Both the position numbers and the translations under genes were made by a program. Shown one piece after another: positions 3,681 through 57,744 of a stretch of 64,000 nt of DNA. The first letter of the stretch is position 1. Every line of letters begins with the position of its first letter. This DNA comes from a virus (taxonomy: Duplodnaviria; Caudoviricetes). The notes beneath the pieces were generated by a model. The model was given only the letters and a program-made list of their open reading frames with translations, made no database searches and was not told the origin of the DNA. The stretch spans positions 69,200 through 133,199 of IMG/VR virus record IMGVR_UViG_3300033463_005840; one strand, written 5' to 3'.

Positions 3681-3710
3681 TTTTTCTTAAAAAATACCAT
3701 TTTTAACAAT

Positions 3711-29625: not shown

Positions 29626-30329
29626 TTTATGGAATAGATTCAAATAAAGTAAGAGCTGATGATTTAAGAGAGTTTTTATCTAAATATAAAGTTGCTTTGC
29701 TTGGTGAGTATGAGTCTGCGGACATTCTTTTAATAAATAACGCAGGGGAGTATCAGAATCATGGCTTTAACCATAATAAAAACAAGTGTTCATATAAAGA
29801 CGTTATTTTTTATGATTATGTCGAGTCTTTAAAGAATGTGGATAACATTATATTATTATCTAAACTTTCTGATTTTAAACTGAGTGAGGAACCAACGGCA
29901 TTACGAATTAAAATAAATAAAGACTCATTTCTTGATAAAAAGATTGAGGAAAACAGCAAAGCCACTTATTATTCCGAGTATATTATGCCGTTAATAAATT
30001 CGGTTAAGTCAAGGCAAGATAATAATAAGAAAAAAGTCATCCAAGCAATTCTTAAAGATATTAAAAATGTTTTGTTGAAAAACAACGGCAATTTTTGTAT
30101 AATGATGTATGCCGATATAATTCAGAAAAAGAAAATTGACGCATTTATTGGATGGTTAAAAACAGATGAGGCAAAAGAGATAAGCATGGCATTGTTAAAT
30201 AGCAGTAATGGTAATTATGCTTCGTTTGAGTTAAAGTATTTGATATTAATGGGACAAGAAAAAGAAAAGAAAACTGAGAAAAGAGAGTTAGAGAAAGAAA
30301 TTAAGGAGAGCTTAAATGGAAATGAATGA
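29622..30329 (+). CDS. Hypothetical protein
   Basis: Coupled ORF. Confidence 0.55.
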   Translation: MIYGIDSNKVRADDLREFLSKYKVALLGEYESADILLINNAGEYQNHGFNHNKNKCSYKDVIFYDYVESLKNVDNIILLSKLSDFKLSEEPTALRIKINKDSFLDKKIEENSKATYYSEYIMPLINSVKSRQDNNKKKVIQAILKDIKNVLLKNNGNFCIMMYADIIQKKKIDAFIGWLKTDEAKEISMALLNSSNGNYASFELKYLILMGQEKEKKTEKRELEKEIKESLNGNE

Positions 30330-30684
30330 CCCCCAAAACATAATAGACGTTAAAAAACAAACGGAAGAAAAAGCTAAAGAGGCGTTACTATTAATAGATA
30401 AAATCAGCAATGATATTTCACAGAATTGCATTTACGGGCAGATATTCAGTTTGGTATGTGCCACGGCAGTTGTCTTAGGTAAAGATTTCGTTGCCGCATA
30501 TACCAGTTTTTTAAATAATTCCGTTAATGAAAAAGTTTTGACTGAAGCTTTAAAAAAGCAATATCCCGAAGAGATATTGAAACAGTTTGACATAACAAAG
30601 ATGGTTGGCTTTTACAGAACTATGGTAAACGGCCCCCTTTTGGCAGTTGAAGACATTTTGAAGAATAACGAAAAAGAGGGTTAA
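30316..30684 (+). CDS. Hypothetical protein
   Basis: Coupled ORF. Confidence 0.55.
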   Translation: MEMNDPQNIIDVKKQTEEKAKEALLLIDKISNDISQNCIYGQIFSLVCATAVVLGKDFVAAYTSFLNNSVNEKVLTEALKKQYPEEILKQFDITKMVGFYRTMVNGPLLAVEDILKNNEKEG

Positions 30685-30687
30685 AGC

Positions 30688-31518
30688 ATGATTCATGTTT
30701 TATTATATGATGTTATGCCGTATGTTTATTCGGCGTATTTCGGAGCTATCTCTTTTTTGAAATTGGAAGAAGTTACGGCTGCGGTCGAGGATAATCTCTT
30801 ACTGGTCTCTAAGCAATTATTGATAAAAAAACTTCAACAGCCGTTTCAGAATTTATCCGGCAACTTTCTTCCGGTCTACTGTTATGATGATTTTCCGAAA
30901 CGCAAGAAAGAACTTTATCCCGAATATAAAGAAAATCGTAAAAAGAAAGATGACTCCAAGAAAATGTCTTTCCGAGTCAGAAACACTCTGCTTTTATCGG
31001 TTAAAAACAGAGATGGATATCATCTAAGTTCTCCTGATGAAGAGGCCGATGATGTTATTGCCACCGCTAAAAAAATGATTGATGAAAAATTGAAAGGTCA
31101 AGATTATAGAATTTATATATTAAGTACGGATAACGACCTCTTGCAATTGACGGATGACCACACAGTTTGCGTTGACATTATGAAAGGGAGCTGGGGGATA
31201 ATTAAAGATAAAACATACCTTGCAGAAAAATATGGACTCAATAATTTCAAAAAAGTCTTGTTACATAAGATATGTTTTGGTGACACTTCGGATAATATCA
31301 AGGGAATTATAAAGCCACACACCAGAAAAGCTCCGATTATCGCAAAGATAAATGAGTGTAATAATCTTAAAGACTTCGTATTGGATAGTGGATTTGTCGC
31401 TAAAGAAAAAATACCGGAAGTCAAGAAACTGATGAATCTTATAATATTAAGAGATAATTTACCGTGTAAAATTACCTGCAATGAAGGAAACACTTATTTT
31501 AAAGGGATTTCACTATGA
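30688..31518 (+). CDS. 5'-3' exonuclease (FEN/T4 RNase H-like)
   Basis: YKENR, EADDVIA, STDNDLLQL, GDTSDNIKG. Confidence 0.9.
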   Translation: MIHVLLYDVMPYVYSAYFGAISFLKLEEVTAAVEDNLLLVSKQLLIKKLQQPFQNLSGNFLPVYCYDDFPKRKKELYPEYKENRKKKDDSKKMSFRVRNTLLLSVKNRDGYHLSSPDEEADDVIATAKKMIDEKLKGQDYRIYILSTDNDLLQLTDDHTVCVDIMKGSWGIIKDKTYLAEKYGLNNFKKVLLHKICFGDTSDNIKGIIKPHTRKAPIIAKINECNNLKDFVLDSGFVAKEKIPEVKKLMNLIILRDNLPCKITCNEGNTYFKGISL

Positions 31519-33407
31519 CCGATTCTTTTAATAACATCGAGATAATTGAGCAGAAGTTTGAGGAGTATACGCTTAATAATATGGATGAAGTTCTTAAACA
31601 CATCGAAAGGTGCGGAAAGAACTGTTATAAATCCGAAAAAAATATAACGGAAACGTCTGCCGAAAAATTTATTGACAATATCTTAAAATCAGGGCATGAG
31701 TCAGTCATTGAACACGCTCATTTCATCTTTAAAATGAAGATTGAAGATGCCGAATTATTGTTCAATAAAATAGGTTATCCGGCATTGTCAGAATTAAGGG
31801 GTTTAAATATCACTCAGTATTCTGATGACCGCCAAACGCATTATTATATAATATCCGGCAATCCCAGAACTTTTCGGGATATATATAGAGTAAGCGGGGT
31901 TTATGTCTTTTTAGATAAGCTGCCTGAAATCTTTTCTAAGTATTTAGGTAAAGATGGTACTTTTAAATTAACAGGCAAAACGGTTGAACCGGAAACATAT
32001 GAATTAGTTGGTATTCAAAAGTCAGACTATGGCGATAAGCATAATTATTATACTTTCAGGTTTGACACCTCGATTTCAACTTATAAAGACATAACCAGAC
32101 ACAGAAATCTTAGTTGGTCAATCGAAAGCACACGTTATTGTGTAGCAGGAGATACTAAATTAAAATTCAGTAATGCACATCATAATTATAATGTGAAGGA
32201 TTTATACAATAAAATCCACGTCAATCCTCCTTCTAATGCTAGTTGGAAAAGGATTAAGATAAGACAGCTGAATGAAAATACTGGAGTTTTAGAGTTTGCT
32301 AAAATAAAAGATGTTCTATACATGGGCAAAAAACCTGTCTTACAGATTAAAACTCGTCTTGGCTATGAATTAAAGTGTACTAAAGAGCATCCTATATACA
32401 GTAAAGACGGCTATATAGAAGCAGGTAACTTAACATTAGGAAATGAGATTTATATAAATGGTAAAGATATAACTGAAAAACCTCTTTATCAAGACAAAGA
32501 CTGGCTATATTATCAAAATATAACTTTAAATAAAACTTTTGCACAAATAGCTAAGGAATTTTCTTTTAATGCGAATACTGTAAAAAAGTGGGGAGCAAAA
32601 TTAGCATTGCCTAAAAAGGGCACAGGTTATTTTAATAAAGGAAGGATTCCATGGAATAAGGACTTACACGAAAAAGATGATAGTCGTGTAAAAATACAAG
32701 CGGACACTTTAAGGGAATTTAGATGGGATAAGTGGCACGATACAGAGAAACTTAAAAAATTAGGCAAGCGTTCTTATAGAAAAATGATTAAAGATACATG
32801 TGAAATATGTTCTTCAAAAGAAGGTTTGCAAGTACATCATATAGATTGTGATAGAGAGCATAACGATAATAATCCTAACAACCTAATAACACTCTGTCCT
32901 AAATGTCACGCTGGAGTACACAGCAAAAATCTAACGATTGCAGTTTTAGACCCAGTTGTTGAAATTAAAGAATTACCTGCTGAAGATGTTTATGATATAG
33001 TTATGGATAGTGAATACCATAATTTTGTCGCTAATGGTGTTATAGTTCATAATTGTAATTACTCTAGGAAAAACGAAAACGGCAAGATTAAGATTGTTGA
33101 TTGCTCTTATTTTATGACTCTGCAAGAACATCAATTATATCTTAACGAGATGGACAAGATGGCCGCTAAGTATAATGTAATGGCAAAAGATTTTGAAAGT
33201 AAGCCAGATGTTCTTAGAATGATTTTGCCGCATGGAACCGCTGCATCTGTGGTTATGAGCGGTAGCGTTTACGATTTGAAAAAAATGTTGGCTTTAAGAA
33301 CTGATATCCATGCTCATCCGACAGTTCAACATGATATGAAAGAGATTGAAAATTTAATTCAAAAAGATTCCAAAGAAATTTTGTTTTTGGATAGAAGAAT
33401 GGTCTGA
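31515..33407 (+). CDS. thyX: Flavin-dependent thymidylate synthase with intein
   Basis: GHESVIEH, RHR..SWSIESTRY|C, R.ILP, LR..HAH. Confidence 0.9.
   Translation: MTDSFNNIEIIEQKFEEYTLNNMDEVLKHIERCGKNCYKSEKNITETSAEKFIDNILKSGHESVIEHAHFIFKMKIEDAELLFNKIGYPALSELRGLNITQYSDDRQTHYYIISGNPRTFRDIYRVSGVYVFLDKLPEIFSKYLGKDGTFKLTGKTVEPETYELVGIQKSDYGDKHNYYTFRFDTSISTYKDITRHRNLSWSIESTRYCVAGDTKLKFSNAHHNYNVKDLYNKIHVNPPSNASWKRIKIRQLNENTGVLEFAKIKDVLYMGKKPVLQIKTRLGYELKCTKEHPIYSKDGYIEAGNLTLGNEIYINGKDITEKPLYQDKDWLYYQNITLNKTFAQIAKEFSFNANTVKKWGAKLALPKKGTGYFNKGRIPWNKDLHEKDDSRVKIQADTLREFRWDKWHDTEKLKKLGKRSYRKMIKDTCEICSSKEGLQVHHIDCDREHNDNNPNNLITLCPKCHAGVHSKNLTIAVLDPVVEIKELPAEDVYDIVMDSEYHNFVANGVIVHNCNYSRKNENGKIKIVDCSYFMTLQEHQLYLNEMDKMAAKYNVMAKDFESKPDVLRMILPHGTAASVVMSGSVYDLKKMLALRTDIHAHPTVQHDMKEIENLIQKDSKEILFLDRRMV
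32139..33053 (+). mobile_element. Intein (305 aa) with HNH endonuclease
   Basis: CVAGDT..TKEHP..VYDI..VHN|C; CEIC..VHHID..NN..NL.TLCPKCH. Confidence 0.92.
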
Positions 33408-33431
33408 TTTTTAAAGAAAGGAGAAAAACAA

Positions 33432-33710
33432 ATGACAGACTTAAATGAATTAGAAAATAGTAAAACTGAAGAGGTTAAAATTGACCCCACTAATTTGAAA
33501 CTTCGTTCTTATATTGAACGTGTGGAAAATTTGGAAGAACAAAAGAAAAATATTCAAACTGATATTAAAGATATTTTTGCGGAAGCAAAGTCACAGGGTT
33601 TTGATGTTAAGGCATTAAGACAGATTCTTAGATTGCGTAAAATGAGTGATGCCGAGCGTTACGACTTAGAAGCAGCCGTTGACACTTATCGTAAAATTCT
33701 GAATATCTAA
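33432..33710 (+). CDS. gapR: GapR (DUF2312) nucleoid-associated protein
   Basis: LRSYIERVENLEEQKK..DIKDIFAEAKSQGFDVKALRQILRLRKM. Confidence 0.92.
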   Translation: MTDLNELENSKTEEVKIDPTNLKLRSYIERVENLEEQKKNIQTDIKDIFAEAKSQGFDVKALRQILRLRKMSDAERYDLEAAVDTYRKILNI

Positions 33711-33717
33711 TCGGAGA

Positions 33718-34161
33718 TTGAAATTGAAGTTTGCAAAGATTAAAAATGTTAAGAGTCCGACAAGAGCACATTCTGACGATGCCGGTATAGACTTTTATAT
33801 TCCAGACGATTTTTCGCCTGTTGAAATGAAAGTTGGAGATTCCATTTGCATTGAATCAGGGGTTAAAGTTTGCGTTCCGAAAGGTTATGCTTTAATTGGC
33901 TTTAACAAATCAGGCGTTGCCGTTAAAAAGGGCTTGACGCTAGGTGCTTGCGTAATTGACGAATCTTATCAGGGTGAGGTTATCATCAATCTCAATAAGA
34001 TTATTGGTAGTCCTATTACTTTAAAAGGCGGTGATAAAATAGCTCAATTTGTTTTATTACCGATAAATTATGAGATGCCGGAGGAAGTTAATGAAGAAAA
34101 TCTTTTTGAAAAAGAATCAGAAAGAGGTAGCGGAGCTTTCGGTAGTACGGACAGACAATAA
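33718..34161 (+). CDS. dut: Trimeric dUTPase
   Basis: AGIDF, KSG, VIDESYQGE, DKIAQ, RGSGAFGST. Confidence 0.95.
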   Translation: MKLKFAKIKNVKSPTRAHSDDAGIDFYIPDDFSPVEMKVGDSICIESGVKVCVPKGYALIGFNKSGVAVKKGLTLGACVIDESYQGEVIINLNKIIGSPITLKGGDKIAQFVLLPINYEMPEEVNEENLFEKESERGSGAFGSTDRQ

Positions 34162-34179
34162 CTTTTAAAGATTGAAAAG

Positions 34180-34229
34180 AAAAATCCCTCTTGTAAAATG
34201 GAGGGATTTTTTGTTATATATATTTACAG
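34180..34229 (+). terminator. Terminator abutting phage promoter motif
   Basis: aaaatccctc..gagggatttt then TATATATTTACAG. Confidence 0.75.
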
Positions 34230-34299
34230 AAGTTATCTCTTTCTGACCCTTATATTGTATGTTAGAGGGAGAGTAATAAGTAATATAGAAAAATAGATA

Positions 34300-34962
34300 A
34301 TGAAAGGAAAAATTATGACAATAAAAAGAAAACTTATGAGAAAACAGTTAGTTAAAAGTTCTTTAAAAAGGAAACTTCCTTTAAGACATAGAGTTAAAGC
34401 AAGTGTTATTGAAGAATTTAAACTGCTTTTAGCAAATCCGCAAGATAAAAGTAAACAGGCTTGGGTAGAAGATGTTCCTAGCTCTTATATTGCAACCTCT
34501 AAAGAAATTGAACCTTTTTTAAAACAATTTGGTATAGATTATGATGAGATTGAAGACATCTCCTATGATGAAATTACTTTGTCTATTTTAGACGTAGACA
34601 CTAACGGTGCATTTGACGAAGAGGCTCTAAAAGAAGAACTTGTTGGAGATATGACTATTGAGGATATTGAGTCTTATTTTTCGGCATTTACAGACTGTGG
34701 ACATATAGACATTGCAGCTGCACTTTATAACGAGGTTCAAGGACAACATGATTTTAAAGAAGCCCTTGAAGACGCATATAAGTATGAGGTTATGAGTAGT
34801 AAAGGTCCTATTAATTTAGCTCAAGACTATATTGATAGCATAGGGAGTATATCCGAATTAGGCGAAAGAACTCTTAGAACTTATTTTGACTATGAGGCTT
34901 TTGGTAATGACCTTGCTACTGACTATTATGAAACAAGCATAGGCTATTTAAGGGAGATATAA
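34300..34962 (+). CDS. ardA: ArdA-like antirestriction DNA mimic with basic leader
   Basis: Acidic body ending LAQDYID..L.TYFDYEAFGNDL. Confidence 0.7.
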   Translation: MKGKIMTIKRKLMRKQLVKSSLKRKLPLRHRVKASVIEEFKLLLANPQDKSKQAWVEDVPSSYIATSKEIEPFLKQFGIDYDEIEDISYDEITLSILDVDTNGAFDEEALKEELVGDMTIEDIESYFSAFTDCGHIDIAAALYNEVQGQHDFKEALEDAYKYEVMSSKGPINLAQDYIDSIGSISELGERTLRTYFDYEAFGNDLATDYYETSIGYLREI

Positions 34963-34963
34963 A

Positions 34964-35482
34964 ATGAAAACTTTAAAAGAAAGAATTTTAGCAAGAAAAA
35001 GAGAGCAGAATCTTAACCGTTTAACCAGAAAAGCTGCTGTTAAGAGTGCGTTTTTAAATAAACGTAGCATTTTAGCTAAAGATAAAGACCTGCCGTATTA
35101 TTTAGGTATAAAAGACGTTCTTTATATTTATAATGGTCATTGGTCTGACCCGTATGTTTGTTATAAAGACCATTTGTTAGATGAAGTGGAACTTTATGAA
35201 ACGATGCACTCTGACTACGAGGAAGCTATTTCTGAGGGTTATTGGGAAAAAGACAAAAAAATTACGGAAGAAGAGGATATTGATAATTACATTCGTTATA
35301 ATGCGGATTCTGTTAAAGAGGTAATTCTTGAGCACGGCAGAAAAGTTCGTGGCGTTCAAAGAAGATTGGAAGATTTAGGAAGAGAACAGCTGTTAAACAA
35401 TAATATCAAAATCACTCAACATGATATTGATACGGCAGGTGCTTGGACCCCTACCCTTTCAAGAGTTCGTAGGAAATTTTAA
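34964..35482 (+). CDS. Protein with basic leader and acidic core
   Basis: ORF. Confidence 0.6.
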   Translation: MKTLKERILARKREQNLNRLTRKAAVKSAFLNKRSILAKDKDLPYYLGIKDVLYIYNGHWSDPYVCYKDHLLDEVELYETMHSDYEEAISEGYWEKDKKITEEEDIDNYIRYNADSVKEVILEHGRKVRGVQRRLEDLGREQLLNNNIKITQHDIDTAGAWTPTLSRVRRKF

Positions 35483-35485
35483 AAG

Positions 35486-35535
35486 GTGAACGGAAAATAT
35501 CACCACCTTTTAAGGTGGTGATATGAAAGCGAACC
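35486..35535 (-). repeat. Solo IS200/IS605-type palindromic mini-element
   Basis: Perfect atatcaccacctt/aaggtggtgatat stem; minus strand reads ttcgc..ttcac like the ends of the 56268-57744 element. Confidence 0.65.
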
Positions 35536-35556
35536 ATAAGGAAAGGAAGATAAAAA

Positions 35557-35733
35557 ATGAAATTTGAAAAACTTGTTGATGAATTTGCGGATAGATATCT
35601 CGATGATATTTATTTAAAACTACATAGTAACCAGTTTTATGCAGAAGAAGCAAAAATTTCATTTATTGATTGGCTTAAAGATTACGGATATTTAAGTAGA
35701 AAAGATGCAGAGGAATTAAAACGTAAAATTTAA
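35557..35733 (+). CDS. Small hypothetical protein (58 aa, not in ORF track)
   Basis: AAGGAAAGG RBS; MKFEKLVDEFAD..LKRKI. Confidence 0.55.
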   Translation: MKFEKLVDEFADRYLDDIYLKLHSNQFYAEEAKISFIDWLKDYGYLSRKDAEELKRKI

Positions 35734-35782
35734 TTAAGTTAGTGCCGTTCTGACGAAGGGCGGCACTCAGCTCTTTTAGAGG

Positions 35783-35811
35783 TAAATCGAAAAATATTAA
35801 AATTCATAAAA
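35783..35811 (-). repeat. Left inverted repeat of tnpB-like gene
   Basis: 16-bp core 35790-35805 is the reverse complement of 37205-37220. Confidence 0.75.
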
Positions 35812-35850
35812 CATGTTTACTTTTGATTCAATTTAAAATACAATATTATT

Positions 35851-37197
35851 ATGTTAACTTTAAAGATTAAATATTCCGTTCAAGACTGCTTTAAAGATAC
35901 TATCTCTGATTATCAGAGACAGTATAATAATCTATTACACCTCTTTTACAATAGATTAAAGGAGGGTATATCAGAAACAGCTTGCAAACATCTTTCTTTT
36001 AATAATCTTGAACTGATGAACAGCTGGCTTAGGCAATCTTGTGTTAAAGATACTAGTTATCTAATAAAAGATTTTAAGGATGATGCTATTCTCTTTGGAG
36101 GTAAGAAACTCTTTGAAAAAAGATTTAGAAAGAATATATCTAAAGAAGAATTTAAAGAAAAAAGATTAGTCCCTTTTATGTCAGCTGGAGATAGTAAGCG
36201 TAAGGGTAATAGATTATTTAGGTTAGTGGAATCTTTAGACCGAGTTATCTTTCAACCAAAAGCAAATCTTAAAATCTCTTTGACTCTTATAGGCGTAGGT
36301 AAAAACAGGATAAAGATTCTTAAAAAGTTATATCAGCATCAATTAGCTTGTGATTTACCTATAACTTATAAATTAGATAAACAATACATTTATATAACCT
36401 TTGATGAGGTAATCCTTCAAGAGAAATTAGTTAAACCTACCGAAAATAGGATAATGTCTATCGACATGAATCCTAATTATATAGGGTACTCAATTTTAGA
36501 CTGGAAAGATTCTGAAAAATTTGAGGTTGTTAAAACAGGTATCATATCTTTAAAGAATTTGAATGATTATGATAAGTCTTTAAAAGACAAAAAACTTCCC
36601 GCAACAGATTCCGAAAGAATTTATACCTATAACAAGAGAGTATACGAAACTTTAGAATCCTCTAAGTATCTTATCAAACTAGCTGAACATTACAAGTGTG
36701 AATGTTTTGCTATTGAAGACTTAAATATGAAATCTAAAGACTTAGGTTATGGAAGAGTTAATAATAAACTCATTTTAAATAACTGGAACAGGAATAAGTT
36801 AGCATCTAATTTAGAAAAGCGCTGTAATATATTAGGAATCAAATTTTTAAAAGTGATTCCTAACTATTCATCTATTATAGGTAACTTAGTTTATAGAGAT
36901 TTACAGTTACCTGACCCTATTCTAGCATCTATTGAAATTAGTAGAAGGTGCTACGAATTTAATCTTCAATATGTTAAGAAGATTAAAACTAAGACAAAGA
37001 ATATAGTTCTACCAATTCTTGAATCACTAAAAGATAAAGTAAAACACTCATTGGAAGAAGTAAAGTGCTTTATTGATTTTGAAAATTGGCAGCAATTATT
37101 TTCTTTGTTAAAGAAATCTAAACTTAAATATAGATTTCCTTTCAAAGAGAAAGTCTTTCAGACAAAAACTTTAAGATTTGTTAATCAGTTTTACTGA
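35851..37197 (+). CDS. tnpB: TnpB/Cas12f-like RuvC protein lacking the zinc finger
   Basis: RuvC-I SIDMNP, RuvC-II IEDL, RuvC-III PDPILAS; YSSIIGN in place of CxxC; TTTACT-17-TACAAT promoter, leaderless. Confidence 0.8.
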   Translation: MLTLKIKYSVQDCFKDTISDYQRQYNNLLHLFYNRLKEGISETACKHLSFNNLELMNSWLRQSCVKDTSYLIKDFKDDAILFGGKKLFEKRFRKNISKEEFKEKRLVPFMSAGDSKRKGNRLFRLVESLDRVIFQPKANLKISLTLIGVGKNRIKILKKLYQHQLACDLPITYKLDKQYIYITFDEVILQEKLVKPTENRIMSIDMNPNYIGYSILDWKDSEKFEVVKTGIISLKNLNDYDKSLKDKKLPATDSERIYTYNKRVYETLESSKYLIKLAEHYKCECFAIEDLNMKSKDLGYGRVNNKLILNNWNRNKLASNLEKRCNILGIKFLKVIPNYSSIIGNLVYRDLQLPDPILASIEISRRCYEFNLQYVKKIKTKTKNIVLPILESLKDKVKHSLEEVKCFIDFENWQQLFSLLKKSKLKYRFPFKEKVFQTKTLRFVNQFY

Positions 37198-37228
37198 TTT
37201 TAACGAATTTTAATATTTTTGATATTTA
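37198..37228 (+). repeat. Right inverted repeat of tnpB-like gene
   Basis: ttttaacgaattttaatatttttgatattta. Confidence 0.75.
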
Positions 37229-37251
37229 ATATTCGCAGTTATCGGTCAGCC

Positions 37252-37268
37252 ATATATATATATTTATA
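37252..37268 (+). promoter_or_regulatory. Phage promoter motif
   Basis: ATATATATATATTTATA. Confidence 0.65.
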
Positions 37269-37302
37269 GGTTACTGTTTTTAATTTTTTGAAAGGTTTAG
37301 AT

Positions 37303-38205
37303 ATGTTGAGAAATTTTATGGAAAAAAAGAAAGATAAACGTAATAGAGTTTTATCTAATTTAAGATTTAAAAGAAAGCTGTTAGCAAAAGCCAGACAGAT
37401 GGTTTTGTCCGAAGACCAGACTCAGAGAGATAGAATTAACGCTTTGGCGAATTTTCTTGGTCTTTCCGGCAGAGAAAAAAGAAAAATCAAAGTAAGTGAT
37501 TATGATGATTACACTTTTACTTATGGTGATGAAGAGTATATGGTTTTAACCGATTCAGAGGCGGATGATAGAGCTGTCGAAGAAATCCAAAATATTATTG
37601 ATGACACGGGTTTGCAAGCTTTTTCTTCTGAAGCACAAGAATATATCTTAGATAATTTTTGTTCTTGGGACTGGGAAAGCGACTTGCATGATGGTAACAT
37701 GAGTTATGCCTATGATGTCTGGGAAGAGTCAGATGACGAATATGGTAATCATGCGATTCGAGAGTTTTATGAAAGAACTGATGGCACAGATTCTTTTGGA
37801 AAAACAGTAGGTGGTTTTGCATTAGTTCGTAAGGACAATAATATAAAAGACGAAGACCCAATTATCTTTTCTACAAAACAAGAGGCTTTGGATTTTATAA
37901 ATGAGAGAAATCTTAGAATCTCTGATTATAAAGATATCGTTTTTGATGAAAAATTTGTTGACAAAGACTATGTTTGTGAGCAGTTAGCTTATTCTATGGA
38001 TGATGTTTATACGTCAGCATCGGAATATTTGCGTGATTCCGGCGGACTTGACAGTGATTGGTTAATAAACTGCCTAGACGTTGAAGCTATTACTCAATAT
38101 TGTATAGAAAAGGATGGCCGTGGACATAACTTAGCCAGATATGACGGATACGAAAACGAAATAGACTACGAGGGTGAAACTTATTTTATTTATCGGATGA
38201 ATTAA
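37303..38205 (+). CDS. Acidic putative DNA-mimic protein with basic leader
   Basis: EYMVLTDSEAD..DGRGHNLARYDG.E..YFIYR; very D/E-rich. Confidence 0.55.
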   Translation: MLRNFMEKKKDKRNRVLSNLRFKRKLLAKARQMVLSEDQTQRDRINALANFLGLSGREKRKIKVSDYDDYTFTYGDEEYMVLTDSEADDRAVEEIQNIIDDTGLQAFSSEAQEYILDNFCSWDWESDLHDGNMSYAYDVWEESDDEYGNHAIREFYERTDGTDSFGKTVGGFALVRKDNNIKDEDPIIFSTKQEALDFINERNLRISDYKDIVFDEKFVDKDYVCEQLAYSMDDVYTSASEYLRDSGGLDSDWLINCLDVEAITQYCIEKDGRGHNLARYDGYENEIDYEGETYFIYRMN

Positions 38206-38221
38206 TTATCAGGGGTTTTAT

Positions 38222-39334
38222 ATGATTTATGCAGTTATTGGTCAGCCGTTTACGGTAAATGCAGAGATTAAAAACGATGACGGTACTCCGTTTGCCGTTA
38301 ATACTCCCGTTACATATAAAGTGTATGATTTTAATGATACCTTTATTTTACAGGGTAGTGCAATTCAGGATTCTCAATTACCAACGAATTGGCTTGCTCA
38401 TTTCACGCTTCCGGTTACTGCTCCTACCCCGAATGATTTTAGCAACGAACAATATTCGATTGAATTTGAAGCCGTTTATAATAATCTTATTATTAAAAGT
38501 AAGTTATATTTTCAAGTCTTAAATCAAGCAGAACCGGAAGCGCATGATTCTAATATTGTTATCTTAGATAGAAGTCCGGTTATTGATTCTTTAATAACTC
38601 AATTCTCTGTTACCTCTTATAGTGTTAAGATTACCGATGAGTATGACAATATTCTTTATCAATTTACAGAAGATAATCCAACTTCCACTTTAATTAATAA
38701 TGAGTATGTTACTAAGTTTAACAGTGGTAATTTTAATTTAAGCGCCGGTGACGGTATGTTCCCGTATCTTATTATTTATACATATACTATGGCGAATAGT
38801 CAGACAAACACCGAGATTCATCCAGTGTATGTAATGAACTCAGCGATGATGCTTGCCGTTAACGATATGCGTATGTATTTAGATAAAGCGAGAAATTATG
38901 ATATTGACCCGTCTTTGAGATGGACGGATGCGGAGTTATCGCATTTTATTATGAGCGGTTTACAAAGATTTAATGCAGCGAATCCGGCGGTTACAAATTA
39001 TAATATAAATAGCTTTCCTAAGTATTTGTTTTATATGCTTGTTAAAATGGCAGAGGTTGAAGCGCTGAACGCTTTGTATCTTGCTGAAGGAATGAGAGCG
39101 TTTAATTTCACTGGCGCTTCTACTACACTTGAAGTTGACAGGACGCAGTATATTAGCACTAAAATGGACGAAATTAACGGGTGGCTTAATGATAATCTTA
39201 CTAACGCAAAAACGCTGTTAGTAAAGAGAATGTTTGGTGCCGGTGTCAATGGTATTTCACTGACATCAGTGACGAACAGAATCGGATATAATTGGAGAAG
39301 TCCTATGTATATTCGTATGTTAAATTCTTTATAA
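38222..39334 (+). CDS. Virion structural (neck/adaptor-like) protein
   Basis: Beta-rich N-terminus; helical MRMYLDK..WTDAELSHF C-terminus. Confidence 0.45.
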   Translation: MIYAVIGQPFTVNAEIKNDDGTPFAVNTPVTYKVYDFNDTFILQGSAIQDSQLPTNWLAHFTLPVTAPTPNDFSNEQYSIEFEAVYNNLIIKSKLYFQVLNQAEPEAHDSNIVILDRSPVIDSLITQFSVTSYSVKITDEYDNILYQFTEDNPTSTLINNEYVTKFNSGNFNLSAGDGMFPYLIIYTYTMANSQTNTEIHPVYVMNSAMMLAVNDMRMYLDKARNYDIDPSLRWTDAELSHFIMSGLQRFNAANPAVTNYNINSFPKYLFYMLVKMAEVEALNALYLAEGMRAFNFTGASTTLEVDRTQYISTKMDEINGWLNDNLTNAKTLLVKRMFGAGVNGISLTSVTNRIGYNWRSPMYIRMLNSL

Positions 39335-39398
39335 AAGTTGTTTACTTTTGGTTGAGAGTTTATTATAATATGATTATAAATAAAAGGAGTAAAATAAT

Positions 39399-39907
39399 AT
39401 GATTAGAAACAGGTTTTAAGAGATAGGTTATATAACAGACGTAGAATTTTATCTGCTGAAAATAAATACAGACCAGGTGAGTTCGGTTTCTTGTGGACTG
39501 TAATTAAAGGGAAGCCGGATATAGAAGGTACAGATTACGAAGGTAGCATAGACTGCCACGGATATAAACTTACTTCGTTAAGAGGTGCTCCTAGAGAAGT
39601 TAGTGGTAATTTTGATTGTTCCGATAATCAACTCACATCACTCGAAGGCGCTCCTGTAGAAGTTGGTTGGGGTTTTAATTGCGGAGGTAATCAACTTGAT
39701 TCATTAGAAGGAGCTCCTGAGCGAGTAGGTGACTTGTTTGATTGTGGTCATAATCGTTATCTCGCCTCATTAAAGGATGCCCCTGTGTATGTCGGCAGAG
39801 GTTTTTATTGTCGTTATTGCAAAAATCTTTCCAAGGAAAATATTATGCACCTTAGAAGTTATTGTAATATTGACGGTGTAATTAAATCTGATTATGGTGA
39901 GTTTTAA
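39399..39907 (+). pseudogene. LRR-like repeat protein with frameshift near codon 6
   Basis: F.C..NQL.SLEGAP repeats; ATG 39399 (AAGGAG RBS) hits TAA; one extra T would join it to frame LRDRLYNRRRILSA. Confidence 0.6.
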
Positions 39908-39930
39908 TTTAAAAGATAAGGAGTCAAAGA

Positions 39931-40275
39931 ATGATTAAAAGAAATTTTAAAAACAGAGTTACGGCTAGCAATGACTTTTTTATAGAAGGTTCTTCCATAA
40001 GTTATAACGTTAAGTATGTTCAAGATGATAATAAAACAGGAATACTTTCACGATATTTTAGAGTAAAAGAAAGGAATACGATTGAAGGTATTAAAAATCT
40101 TATCAATCGTCTGTATAAAGCCTATGGCATAGAGGTTTTTAAGTTTCTTCCGTATGAACATGGTGAAATTGAGATTGTATTTTCTCAAGATGACCATGTA
40201 ATAGGTTGCATTTATTTAAATGACGGCGTTATTATCGAATCTATGGATATAGGATTATACTTAAAGGAAAAATAA
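39931..40275 (+). CDS. Hypothetical protein with basic leader
   Basis: MIKRNFKNRVTAS. Confidence 0.55.
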   Translation: MIKRNFKNRVTASNDFFIEGSSISYNVKYVQDDNKTGILSRYFRVKERNTIEGIKNLINRLYKAYGIEVFKFLPYEHGEIEIVFSQDDHVIGCIYLNDGVIIESMDIGLYLKEK

Positions 40276-40325
40276 AATGGCAGGCGTAAATTTTAATAAA
40301 GGTTCTTGGGAATTAAGAGCATTAA

Positions 40326-40754
40326 ATGCAAAACCAGCAATTAACAGATTATTGTGTAGTATGTGGCAGACGGGATAACTTGGAAGCTCACCACGTTATC
40401 CCGATTTGCTATGGCGGTGACAAAGACGGTTTGCAGATTAACGTTTGCGAAACGTGTCATGCAAATATTCATAGAACCGCCGAAAGTATGCTTGCTAAAA
40501 CTGTTAAGGCTAAAAACTTCTTTACTTCGCAAGAGCTGCTTAAAAAAGCTGCACCTTATGTAAAGGCTGTTATCGATGCTAAAAGGAATTATCAAGAAGG
40601 CAACGTTTCACAAGATTTACGGAAACGCCGGCTTATTATTGTAGAGATGACTGATTTTGAATGGAAACGCCTTCATAAAAGAAAGCTGGATGCCGGATAT
40701 AAAAGTCTGGAAAAATATATACAAGATTTATTAGTAAGTCAGACTAGATTTTAA
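40326..40754 (+). CDS. HNH endonuclease with C-terminal DNA-binding-like segment
   Basis: CVVCG..EAHHVIP..GG..CETCH..H. Confidence 0.85.
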   Translation: MQNQQLTDYCVVCGRRDNLEAHHVIPICYGGDKDGLQINVCETCHANIHRTAESMLAKTVKAKNFFTSQELLKKAAPYVKAVIDAKRNYQEGNVSQDLRKRRLIIVEMTDFEWKRLHKRKLDAGYKSLEKYIQDLLVSQTRF

Positions 40755-40763
40755 AGGAAAAAT

Positions 40764-40861
40764 TATATATATTTACAAGTAATATGTTATTTTTAATAGA
40801 TTAAGGAAATAGTCTGTTTAAGACTAGCATATGAAAAAAGACTATTATGTATATTTATAAA
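40764..40861 (+). repeat. Promoter-hairpin-promoter cassette, copy 1
   Basis: Similar to 42004-42100. Confidence 0.6.
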
Positions 40862-40876
40862 GGAAAGGAAAAAGTT

Positions 40877-41554
40877 ATGAATGTTGATGTTAAATTTATG
40901 AGCAAGTTGATAGAAGAATTTAAAGATGACTATAGAGTTGAAGATTGTTATCGGGCTCTTCTTGCTTTGGAATTATCTAAAGAATTTGGTATATATTTTC
41001 GTTATGTTGATGGCAAAATTTCATGCGAAGCTTTAGGTTTTGCGAAATATATGAATGAATTTCATAGCTACGAGTCACTGAGACAGACCATTGAGAATAT
41101 GCTCGGTAGTGATTATAACGATGTAAAATTGAAAGATGCTTTCGATTATGATTTTAGTTATTCTGGTAAGGGTTTAAGGTTTGATGAGGATAAATTTGGT
41201 GCTTTTAGATTTGTGGGTAGGTTTTTGTCACCTGATATAACGCCAATTTTTCATGTAATGCTATATGTCTTAGCAGGGGAGGTTCCGGAAGATTTTAGAG
41301 AAGCCAATGCTTTTGAAGATAAGGCTCAGAAATATTCAAAAGACCACCAATACTCTTCAGATTGCCTGTTTGAGAATTATAAACACCTTAATACTGGCAA
41401 CTGGATTGACCTCGGTAAAGTTGTTGATAAATTCTTTGATGGCATTTCCCTTAAAATATTCAAGAACGGAAATGGTTTAATTAAAGGGTTAACTAACGAA
41501 GAGTGGGAAAGAGCTTTATATTTGCAAGATGTTTGCACAAAGAAGCTCCGCTAA
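40877..41554 (+). CDS. Hypothetical protein
   Basis: ORF after AAGGAAAGG. Confidence 0.6.
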   Translation: MNVDVKFMSKLIEEFKDDYRVEDCYRALLALELSKEFGIYFRYVDGKISCEALGFAKYMNEFHSYESLRQTIENMLGSDYNDVKLKDAFDYDFSYSGKGLRFDEDKFGAFRFVGRFLSPDITPIFHVMLYVLAGEVPEDFREANAFEDKAQKYSKDHQYSSDCLFENYKHLNTGNWIDLGKVVDKFFDGISLKIFKNGNGLIKGLTNEEWERALYLQDVCTKKLR

Positions 41555-41561
41555 TTTGAAT

Positions 41562-41614
41562 AAAAATCCCTCCTGCTTAAAACAAGAGGGATTTTTGTTA
41601 TATATATTTATAAG
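41562..41614 (+). terminator. Terminator abutting phage promoter motif
   Basis: aaaaatccctc..gagggattttt then TATATATTTATAAG. Confidence 0.75.
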
Positions 41615-41681
41615 GGAAGGAATTGTTTGTAGACAAACTGCTTTTCAAATTTGAGAAAACTAAAACGAAAGGAAATTATAA

Positions 41682-41894
41682 ATGAGATTTTACGATATGA
41701 AAATTAAAGATTTAAAGGAACTCTTGGAAGATACTTTAAACGCTTTAGAAGATTATGACGACGATGAAACTTTAGTGTTACATTCTAATACTTATAGCAT
41801 AGATAGGAAAGGCCATATCTATATTGGAACACGTGACGGTTTTATTGATATCGAAAATATTCAAGTAGAAGGTTATGACTACGATGAAATTTAA
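41682..41894 (+). CDS. Small acidic hypothetical protein
   Basis: ORF with RBS. Confidence 0.55.
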   Translation: MRFYDMKIKDLKELLEDTLNALEDYDDDETLVLHSNTYSIDRKGHIYIGTRDGFIDIENIQVEGYDYDEI

Positions 41895-42003
41895 CCATCT
41901 TTAAGAAAACTAAGAAAGGATAATTAAATGATTAGGAATAGTCCCTTTTCATAGATTGACGTTAATCAACTGATATTTTTGAAATAATCAAAGAAATTTT
42001 TGT

Positions 42004-56267: not shown

Positions 56268-57744
56268 GTGAACTACTGCCACCTTAAAAGGTGTCAGCTT
56301 CTGTTTTCGCTTCATCGACTCTACTTGCATAACAAATCTCTATTAAGAGATTGTGATGTAGAGGAAGATGTCTCAGCGGAGGCTTGTTCCAAGCACTCAG
56401 CTCTTTTAGTTGAGCCAAACATCTTTATGTTCTTAGCAGCATGGATATCTCTATCTTCAGAATAACCACAGCTACAAGTATAAACTCTATCAGCTAAAGT
56501 TAATTGATTAAGATTCCCACAATTAGGACAAAACTTAGTAGTAGGTAAATTTTTTGAAATCATAAAGGCTTTTCCTTCAGACTGTAGCATCTGAAGTTGA
56601 GTTTTTAATCTTCCAAGTATAGAATGTTGAATCTTCTTTCCCATAGAATAACCGCACTTTCTACCGGTTTTCTTAGAATGTTTTCCTTTATGCCAAGCTT
56701 TAACCATCTCATCTTGAAAGTAAATTATATCATAATTACTCTTAAGATAAGAGATTATCTTGTTACAAGCATCATTTCTTTTATTTGTGAGATGCTGATA
56801 CTCACACCTAATTTGTTTAAGAAGTTTGTAATATCGCTTAGAACCTTTCTGCTTACGATGTAAATGCTTTTGTAAGTATTTCAGTTGTTCACTTTCTCGC
56901 ACATTACAATCAAATTTCTTACCATCAGATGTGGTAACACTGATTTTAACCCCAAAGTCTAATCCAACTTCCTTATAAGTTTTCTTAGACTCTAAAGCAT
57001 CTTTATCAATACAAACGGCTATTTTTACAAAATAACCATCTGGTCTTTTAATTAACCTCCCTTCAGCTAATTCATATTTTTGATATTTATTAAGTTGCTC
57101 CAAACCATAAACCGTTAAGTTCTTAAAGCCTGGAATAGTTATATGTCTCTTATTCTTAATTTTAGTATATCCGGTTATTATCGGAATGGACTTAATCTCA
57201 GAGACATATTTAAGCTTTCCAATCTTTTTACCTTTTTTCTTAGCTTTTGAAAGATTAGTTATGTTAGTTTTTAGTTGAACTATAAGCCTTCTATGATAAA
57301 CACTAGGAATATCCAACTTTTCAATTATTTTATTCTTATCTTTATCAAACCGGCTAACTTCTCTATGTTCTGTATACTTATAATCGAAAATATCCTGAGT
57401 TTCACTATAAGCTAGCATATCATTATAAATCCACTTAGCTTGCTTAAAGTAAGAGTTAAGAGTTTCAAATGTTTCCTTAGAAGTATGATGACAATTAACC
57501 TTCAACTCAAATACTTTAATTACTTGAGTTTTTCTACGTTCTCTCGTAGCATTACGGGTATCACGTATTCTTTGTCGCTCTTCAAGCGTTATAAACTCTT
57601 TACTCATTTTTGACTTAAAAATTATTTTTTCATTATTAATTCAAATATATCATATTTTCAATTTCTTGTAAATAGTTATTTTCAAAATTTTTCAAAAATT
57701 TTTTGATTTCTAAATGCCACCCTAAAGGGATAGCATCTTGCGAA
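56268..57744 (-). mobile_element. IS200/IS605-family tnpB-only element
   Basis: Inserted 3' of TTGAT, subterminal hairpins at both ends, ends in TCAC, no TSD. Confidence 0.88.
56321..57607 (-). CDS. tnpB: TnpB RNA-guided nuclease
   Basis: GLDFG, FQDE, CPNCG..CSCG, DRDIHAAKNI. Confidence 0.92.
   Translation of the reverse strand: MSKEFITLEERQRIRDTRNATRERRKTQVIKVFELKVNCHHTSKETFETLNSYFKQAKWIYNDMLAYSETQDIFDYKYTEHREVSRFDKDKNKIIEKLDIPSVYHRRLIVQLKTNITNLSKAKKKGKKIGKLKYVSEIKSIPIITGYTKIKNKRHITIPGFKNLTVYGLEQLNKYQKYELAEGRLIKRPDGYFVKIAVCIDKDALESKKTYKEVGLDFGVKISVTTSDGKKFDCNVRESEQLKYLQKHLHRKQKGSKRYYKLLKQIRCEYQHLTNKRNDACNKIISYLKSNYDIIYFQDEMVKAWHKGKHSKKTGRKCGYSMGKKIQHSILGRLKTQLQMLQSEGKAFMISKNLPTTKFCPNCGNLNQLTLADRVYTCSCGYSEDRDIHAAKNIKMFGSTKRAECLEQASAETSSSTSQSLNRDLLCK

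Follow-up and report, generated by a model that had tools for sequence, protein, structure and literature searches.

How a gene for a TnpB-like nuclease in a tailed phage came to be bracketed by two inverted repeats, each bordered on its outer side by a short sequence that recurs elsewhere in the same genome, is the question raised by one locus of the IMG/VR record IMGVR_UViG_3300033463_005840 (Duplodnaviria; Caudoviricetes). The stretch analysed here, referred to as the window, comprises 64,000 nucleotides (positions 69,200 to 133,199 of the record) and is part of a 213,785-bp metagenome contig of 33% G+C. A first-pass annotation, made from the sequence alone, read the two repeats as guide handles and the two flanks as spacers, and proposed a dual-guide homing or regulatory system. 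Our analysis favours a different explanation, to which we assign a probability of about 0.72, namely that positions 35783-37229 are a transposase-less copy of an IS607-type insertion sequence (IS) of the ISCaje4 kind, with a single candidate guide RNA, located at the right end.

The gene between the repeats is the TnpB component of an IS607-type element that here lacks its transposase. This assignment was made because relatives carry a tnpA gene upstream, because a family member is already on record within ISCaje4, because a filled insertion site could be compared with its empty counterparts, and because one phage contig carries multiple copies. A serine recombinase of the IS607 type (Pfam Resolvase, E 2e-17) is encoded directly upstream of the family member in 17 of the 74 loci found in IMG/VR. 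At locus L181, where the TnpB-like protein is 64% identical to that of the window, the resolvase gene overlaps the TnpB-like gene by 4 nt, and tnpA sits between the left end of the element and the TnpB-like gene. The record of Campylobacter phage CP220 labels its family member 'ISCaje4 transposase TnpB' and places it, next to a fragment resembling a resolvase, in an insertion sequence annotated as 1,714 bp long (Timms et al. 2010, PMC2853527; NC_027997.1), and in phage vB_CjeM_WX1 (OP654737.1) a complete resolvase gene precedes the family member. At locus L078, tnpA and the TnpB-like gene lie inserted some 45 bp upstream of an orthologue of a 370-aa gene that lies downstream of the unit in the window; loci L075-L077 have flanks nearly identical to those of L078 and lack the element, and thus represent the empty site against the filled one. 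On a single 191-kb phage contig, five copies are alike over about 110 bp upstream, the open reading frame (ORF) and about 125 bp downstream, and diverge beyond. Since tnpA is absent from the window yet present in relatives, the window copy is a non-autonomous derivative. The statement of the first-pass annotation that no transposase lies at the boundaries is therefore correct locally, but does not extend to the relatives, which carry an IS607 TnpA.

The family counts 977 representatives at E below 1e-3. Its 74 IMG/VR loci lie nearly all in contigs of 100-670 kb, and it is often multi-copy in a genome, with up to seven matches in one. Within the GenBank phage collection, it is present in Prevotella Lak megaphages and in Campylobacter phages. 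The lineage is found almost only in large phages. Family members in two genomes, G004 (553 kb, behind L030) and G005 (263 kb, behind L012), hold 8-15 in-frame TAG codons and are therefore readable only in a TAG-recoded code. The bovine-gut sample of the window copy contains at least one other copy of the element, which differs in about 8-9% of its letters and has a right flank beginning AGAAAAATTTAAAGCC (runs X1, X3); P0002, the 86% paralogue, is its likely identity. An unrelated gut sample contains a third copy that is more distant.

The limits of the unit were placed where likeness to relatives and to other copies ends. Likeness to an 86% relative (L079) starts at 35783 (TAAATCG...), and the sequence to the left of 35783 is unrelated; the left flanks of L079, L118, L127, L128, L177, L178 and L181 are likewise mutually unrelated. 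The right ends of six relatives (L118, L127, L128, L177, L178 and L181) read ...TTTAA with divergence beyond, and the more diverged L184 ends in CTTAA before it too diverges. The contigs of the two other copies from runs X1 and X3 match up to 37229 and continue into different sequence. No joint skipping the element was seen among the bovine-gut DNA contigs. The unit is not flanked by a direct repeat. Left flanks of the window copy and its relatives end in AGAGG (the window junction), CAAGA, TTTTG, ATTTG, GTTGG and GGGAATTTA, which are mostly G-ended and share no clear motif, and the left end of the unit lies upstream of promoter-like hexamers.

The inverted repeats with an identical core, as described in the first-pass annotation, were fully recovered: 35790-35811 and 37199-37220 are 91% complementary over 22 nt with a 16-nt exact core, which occurs at the two ends only. 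When the right end was compared, gaps allowed, with the 200 nt upstream, the score was 38, which one of 300 shuffles reached. The two cores lie 7 and 9 nt inside the ends of the unit. The same annotation had found no IS ends at the locus; the repeats sit at precisely such ends. The left-right repeat was tested in seven relatives, however, and was not significant in any of them. An ungapped inverted-repeat search of L181 showed no end repeat, and a scan of IMG/VR for the right-end motif returned the L001 contig only. As the repeat is significant in the window copy alone, it is neither a feature of the family nor a conserved pair of handles, and the proposed check, that homologues would conserve the repeats, came out negative.

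The description of the protein as a RuvC D-E-D enzyme without CxxC motifs proved sound. Residues D205, E289 and D355 are invariant across 20 aligned relatives, in which a conserved Cys pair is absent, and among 239 full-length members of the family not one carries two or more CxxC motifs in its last 200 residues. An AlphaFold2 model built from the 20 relatives (mean predicted local distance difference test score, 82) resembles Cas12f, Cas12k, ISDra2 TnpB and Fanzor2 across almost the full chain. The top Foldseek matches of the model were Cas12f (E 4e-10), Cas12k and ISDra2 TnpB, and by both Foldseek and VIA-align the Cas12f/Cas12k/TnpB match covers residues 1-390, equivalent to the WED-REC-RuvC architecture. 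VIA-align gave Z 18.6 over 320 residues against AsCas12f, and Z 13 at 2.8 Å for residues 199-376 against bacterial RuvC. D205 lies at the end of beta1 of the model, E289 at the end of beta4 and D355 at the start of the last RuvC helix; the triad thus occupies the RuvC positions and is canonical, not rearranged. Between RuvC-II and RuvC-III, the C4 zinc finger (TNB domain) is replaced by a 19-residue linker (336-354), which runs from a conserved YSSxIGN motif to D355; a short linker takes this place throughout the family. Zinc-finger loss has been recorded for some TnpB branches (PMC10691335). Searches with the protein gave no match in Pfam or PHROGs, nor in the PDB by sequence or by profile, and alignment of the family profile by hhalign with the canonical TnpB of the window (56321-57607) showed no likeness. 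The predicted structure supports the assignment of the protein as a TnpB-superfamily RuvC enzyme without a zinc finger.

A candidate omegaRNA scaffold was found at the right end, overlapping the 3' end of the ORF. RNAalifold on eight relatives gave three stem-loops with 35 pairs and 95.4% of cells paired. Nine pairs had changed on both sides, compared with 3.6±1.3 in shuffles (0/500 reached nine) and at most two in slid-partner controls, and the single-sequence fold of the right end gave z = -3.9. Several of the pairs are G-U, and the fold is therefore on the sense (+) strand. The right repeat core forms the 3' arm of the third stem-loop, SL3, with its partner arm in the last codons of the ORF; SL3 is followed by nine unpaired bases (GATATTTAA) and then by the variable flank. 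To judge from its sequence, this layout is that of a TnpB omegaRNA, for which the right end provides a candidate. Applied to the left-end region's minus strand, the same fold test gave a consensus of -0.8 kcal/mol with six weak pairs and no conserved fold, and the left repeat is therefore without a partner arm and without a scaffold. Thus the two repeats are not the equal guide handles that had been proposed, as the right core belongs to a covarying scaffold of about 110 nt, while the left has neither partner arm nor minus-strand fold. Rfam searches, at the gathering threshold for the whole window and at an E-value threshold for both TnpB regions, gave nothing credible, RAGATH-18 included. A group I intron (IStron) was considered and rejected, Rfam having given no match.

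The right flank stands at the position from which a TnpB guide is read. From 37229/37230, it runs (A)TA TTC GCA GTT ATC GGT CAG CCA, or xFAVIGQP in translation, and the 370-aa gene at 38222 starts ATG ATT TAT GCA GTT ATT GGT CAG CCG, or MIYAVIGQP. Homologues of the 370-aa protein begin M-x(1-2)-A-[VI]-I-G-Q/K. The right 17-mer (37235-37251) matches 38231-38247 at 16/17, where 0.03 such matches would be expected by chance, and the match falls on codons 4-9 of the 370-aa gene, 1 kb downstream. Counted from 37230, 20 nt agree with the resident gene at 16/20, and three of the four mismatches fall within the first five positions. Thus of the two flank matches described earlier, the left is exact (17/17) and the right is real but inexact. 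The differences between the flank and the resident gene start are silent or conservative and the N-terminal motif is conserved, so that the flank represents the start of an allele that has diverged rather than a duplicate of the resident gene. At L118, the right end stops directly at the next gene, with the final A of the element doubling as the first letter of the ATG start codon, and a Shine-Dalgarno-like AGGT/GAGGT lies 5-6 nt before the last base in several relatives (L118:3840-3885, and the right ends of L128, L177 and L178). The element can apparently occupy a start codon and not silence the gene. The window flank fits an old start-codon insertion, the ATG of which has since decayed to ATA, and the right flank is probably an earlier insertion site. 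The relic lasts 22 nt and is followed by the motif TATATATATTTATAG, an apparent phage promoter that recurs elsewhere in the window, and then by a 305-aa gene.

The recurrences of this AT-rich motif are at 3710 and 46020. The 305-aa gene and the motif before it lie between two 17-nt direct repeats (37235-37251 and 38231-38247), which looks as if a gene cassette had entered the 370-aa gene behind codon 9 and the start of that gene had been duplicated.

Four mismatches to a guide, three of them in the first five positions, make self-cutting or self-repression at the resident gene unlikely. By analogy with known TnpB systems, a homing function of the right flank, aimed at the alleles of relatives, is plausible, and an element-free allele of the 370-aa gene starting ATGTTCGCAGTTATCGGTCAGCC, if it exists, would be a live target. 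A scan of IMG/VR with the right-flank 17-mer gave eight matches; each lies within an unrelated gene, and no 370-aa homologue starts with one of them. For the five recent copies in one phage genome, the longest matches elsewhere of four left and five right flanks were 12-13 nt, except for one right flank with 17 nt; random 40-nt segments of a related genome reach at least 17 nt in about 5% of trials. The flanks of these copies thus match nothing else in that genome beyond background.

The left 17-mer (35763-35779) is identical to 56393-56409 (17/17). The window holds 15 repeat pairs of at least 17 nt, and the left-flank pair is the only one that is GC-rich. Thirty second-order Markov simulations of the window gave a mean of 1.9 repeat pairs and no GC-rich pair, and the flank matches are therefore beyond chance expectation. 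The partner of the left 17-mer lies at the 3' end of a canonical zinc-finger tnpB gene (56321-57607, minus strand, 428 aa; Pfam OrfB_IS605 and Cas12f1-like TNB), which has no tnpA beside it. Alignment of this 3' region with ten homologues (about 50% identical proteins) revealed a nucleotide-conserved omegaRNA scaffold at 56419-56268, with compensated hairpins, the terminus GTAGTTCAC and flanks that diverge beyond; its variable guide corresponds to 56267-56244. It is the 5' core of this scaffold that the left 17-mer matches. Likeness of L155-type alleles to the window left flank amounts to 19/20 and reaches the junction, which on the plus strand reads ...TTTTAGAGG up to the element, a GAGG site of the kind that IS607 elements prefer. 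Local alignment of the left flank with the canonical tnpB 3' region found no extension past 17 nt. A scan of IMG/VR with the left 15-mer returned 38 matches, of which 11 lay in canonical tnpB 3' ends and the others were apparently random. From these sequence comparisons, the left 17-mer is probably the relic of a nested insertion into the 3' end of a canonical tnpB, eroded later on both sides. Solitary canonical tnpB 3' fragments that keep the omegaRNA core were also seen in other phage contigs, at L141:5143-5310 and L165:3654-3992, so that stray pieces of omegaRNA are no rarity. What stays interesting about the locus is the connection of its left junction with the core of the canonical omegaRNA. 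The idea that flanks act as spacers retains its footing on the right, where the flank occupies the TnpB guide position, and loses it on the left, where no scaffold lies beside the flank.

Table 1. Features of the mobile unit and its flanks (window coordinates).
Feature	Position	Strand	Details and basis
Whole mobile unit, non-autonomous, ISCaje4-like (IS607-type), 1,447 bp	35783..37229	+	Limits of likeness to relatives and to other copies
Left flank	35741..35782	+	Terminator-like hairpin after the 58-aa gene; 17-mer common to the canonical tnpB 3' end; AGAGG at the junction
Left end with inverted-repeat core AAAAATATTAAAATTC (35790-35805)	35783..35811	+	Repeat comparison; L079 boundary; left-end comparison of relatives
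Zinc-finger-less TnpB-like gene	35851..37197	+	448 aa; RuvC triad D205/E289/D355; AlphaFold2, Foldseek, VIA-align, family alignment
Candidate omegaRNA scaffold	37113..37221	+	SL1 37113-37138, SL2 37139-37153, SL3 37163-37221; overlaps the ORF 3' end
Right end with repeat core GAATTTTAATATTTTT (37205-37220) and terminal GATATTTAA	37199..37229	+	Repeat comparison; divergence of relatives; run contigs
Right flank at the TnpB guide position	37230..37252	+	Probably the start of a 370-aa gene allele, since decayed; N-terminal comparison

Among known systems, ISCaje4 of CP220 and vB_CjeM_WX1 comes closest, as it belongs to the same family (39-42% identity over 83-100% of the query, no CxxC), has a resolvase-type TnpA directly upstream and likewise resides in a large virulent phage. 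In contrast to ISCaje4, the window copy is without tnpA, measures 1.45 kb rather than 1.71 kb and has an unusually good inverted repeat at its ends. ISCaje4 is filed under IS200/IS605 though its TnpA is a serine recombinase, and no RNA or activity is reported for it. Elements of the IS607 family often have an imperfect inverted repeat near their ends and short TnpA-bound motifs, use GG targets and make no target duplication (PMC6188088), and G-rich target-adjacent motifs (TAMs), AGGAG/GAGGG, are described for them (PMC13565253). Relatives of the window unit share with IS607, IS1535 and ISFba1 the order of a serine-recombinase TnpA followed by TnpB. The window unit itself is alike in having no target duplication, an imperfect near-end repeat and a G-rich motif (AGAGG) at the insertion, and in a candidate structured RNA that overlaps the tnpB 3' end with the flank at the guide position. 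The unit bears the IS607 hallmarks of absent target duplication, insertion beside GG and an imperfect near-end inverted repeat. It differs from the IS607 family in that its protein lacks a TNB domain and has no sequence similarity to canonical TnpB that could be detected, its RNA fits no Rfam family and its ends are not GG. Cas12f and Cas12k are the best whole-chain structural matches (Z 17-18.6 over about 320 aligned residues); unlike them, the window gene is mobile and multi-copy, lacks a zinc finger and has no CRISPR array or trans-activating CRISPR RNA (tracrRNA) locus nearby. The TnpB clade RIIIr-4 is large, virus-enriched and without the C4 zinc finger, with the RuvC-III aspartate replaced by histidine (Altae-Tran et al. 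2023, PMC10691335), whereas D355 is invariant in the window family. TldR differs as well, since the triad of the window family is intact and the family is mobile and multi-copy.

The dual-guide reading envisages the repeats as outward-transcribed handles like those of CRISPR RNAs, and the flanks as spacers for the 370-aa gene and for the other tnpB element. It draws on the 16-nt core identical at both ends, on a 17-mer within 3-6 nt of each end that recurs in the window beyond chance, and on the striking location of the left partner in a conserved canonical omegaRNA core. It is highly unlikely, nevertheless, because the right core is one half of a conserved hairpin in a larger scaffold, while the left has no other half and no conserved fold, and the left-right repeat was not significant in the seven relatives. 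Moreover, the distance from core to 17-mer is unequal (10 nt against 14 nt), neither match starts at the boundary of the element, the expected place of a Cas12/TnpB seed, and the flanks of the five recent copies have no matches beyond background in their own genome. L181 is also at odds with two guides bracketing a nuclease gene, as its left end borders tnpA and is separated by it from the TnpB-like gene; the left end thus flanks the element, not the nuclease gene. A narrower possibility is that the left flank (35760-35782) is functional in its own right, with RNA or DNA from it pairing with 56393-56409 so that the element targets or silences its rival. We consider this about as improbable; were it true, left-flank targeting together with a right-flank guide at structural-gene alleles of relatives would make a two-front weapon. 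Slightly less credible again is an antisense role in which the plus-strand transcript that stops at the terminator of the 58-aa gene would carry 17 nt perfectly antisense to the canonical omegaRNA at its 5' core and damp the canonical element, leaving the zinc-finger-less protein uninvolved. The match is indeed exact, GC-rich and unique in the window, no part of the omegaRNA is more conserved than the one that holds its partner, and the 17-mer overlaps a terminator-like hairpin that would be in the RNA. This is, however, a single instance without comparative support, 17 nt is short, and a relic origin is simpler, given the L155-type likeness of 19/20 up to the GAGG junction.

Domesticated repressors pose a similar question for the right flank, in that an immobilised element of the TldR or Cas12m kind could bind the start of the genome's own 370-aa gene and tune its expression. 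The 16/17 match on codons 4-9 of a gene 1 kb downstream would suit such a role. The TldR family is nuclease-dead, whereas the catalytic triad of the present family is intact and invariant. Relatives are mobile and multi-copy, a second copy with another flank occurs in the same sample, and three mismatches fall in the first five guide positions. The changes, being silent or conservative, fit a diverged allele and not a tuned guide. Thus, while RNA-guided repressors derived from TnpB do exist in phages according to one report (PMC13418256), we hold the self-directed repressor that the first-pass annotation had offered as an alternative to be most unlikely here. Finally, both flank matches might be accidents of an AT-rich, repeat-rich phage genome, with neither history nor function; in favour of this are the 15 repeat pairs of at least 17 nt in the window, and the random segments of a related genome that reach that length in about 5% of trials. 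Against this, the simulations average 1.9 pairs and no GC-rich one, the right match preserves the frame in which a conserved N-terminal motif is read, with silent or conservative changes, and the left match falls within a 150-nt omegaRNA scaffold out of 64 kb, and coincidence on both sides is therefore very unlikely.

Several points weigh against the reading of the locus as a transposase-less ISCaje4-like element with one guide. The two flanks join into no recognisable empty site, and at least two later rearrangements have to be assumed. A natural allele with the exact right-flank sequence at the gene start was not found in IMG/VR. The left 17-mer is too improbable for chance and is explained loosely at best. 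Classical IS607 elements are described as without terminal inverted repeats, and the window repeat, unlike that description, reaches within 7-9 nt of the ends. As the family has no sequence-level similarity to canonical TnpB, its function could differ, and guide use, TAM and cleavage are argued from family resemblance.

If the locus is nonetheless a transposase-less IS607-type element, as we favour, its parts may be envisaged to act as follows. The inverted repeats would be the subterminal ends presented to a TnpA supplied in trans, and the right repeat would double as the 3' arm of the omegaRNA-like terminal hairpin. By analogy with TnpB, Fanzor and IS607, a single guide would be read from the DNA to the right of the right end, from 37230 onward. 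Nuclease and guide would cut element-free copies of the site, and recombinational repair would keep or spread the element among co-infecting phages. The right flank would be what remains of an earlier insertion, made exactly at the start codon of a 370-aa gene homologue, and a later rearrangement would have put the promoter and the 305-aa gene between the relic and the intact 370-aa gene. The genome's own 370-aa copy, with 4/20 mismatches and three of them in the first five positions, would probably not be cut. The left 17-mer would probably be a leftover of a canonical omegaRNA core from a nested insertion at a GAGG site, and not a second guide.

The gene directly upstream of the unit is the 58-aa ORF, for which Pfam gave no match, and relatives of a 172-aa upstream gene were not found in IMG/VR. 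No CRISPR array was found in 30000-42000, and likewise no tracrRNA locus nearby. Other phage genes of the window include an intein-bearing ThyX, a dUTPase and an ArdA-like gene. The ThyX gene (31515-33407) is split by an intein that includes an HNH-like domain (the called product matches Pfam Thy1, Intein_splicing and HNH), and this intein is another selfish element, 2.4 kb upstream of the TnpB-like unit. The listed sequencing runs that hold the stretch are bovine-gut DNA runs only.

As the family has already been named in GenBank and ISfinder, and the dual-guide idea that had set the locus apart is not supported, the discovery is a modest one: the feature is real and its limits are well defined, yet as a selfish element it is ordinary. 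It concerns a zinc-finger-less TnpB lineage that is abundant in jumbo phages and megaphages, among them Lak, Campylobacter, rumen and gut phages. The lineage is compact (about 450 aa), and the window copy offers clean boundaries, a candidate scaffold and, at 37230-37249, a 20-nt candidate for the guide. Provided that the guide logic is right, the relic of a structural-gene start at its right end would point to transposon-borne, RNA-guided homing between co-infecting phages.

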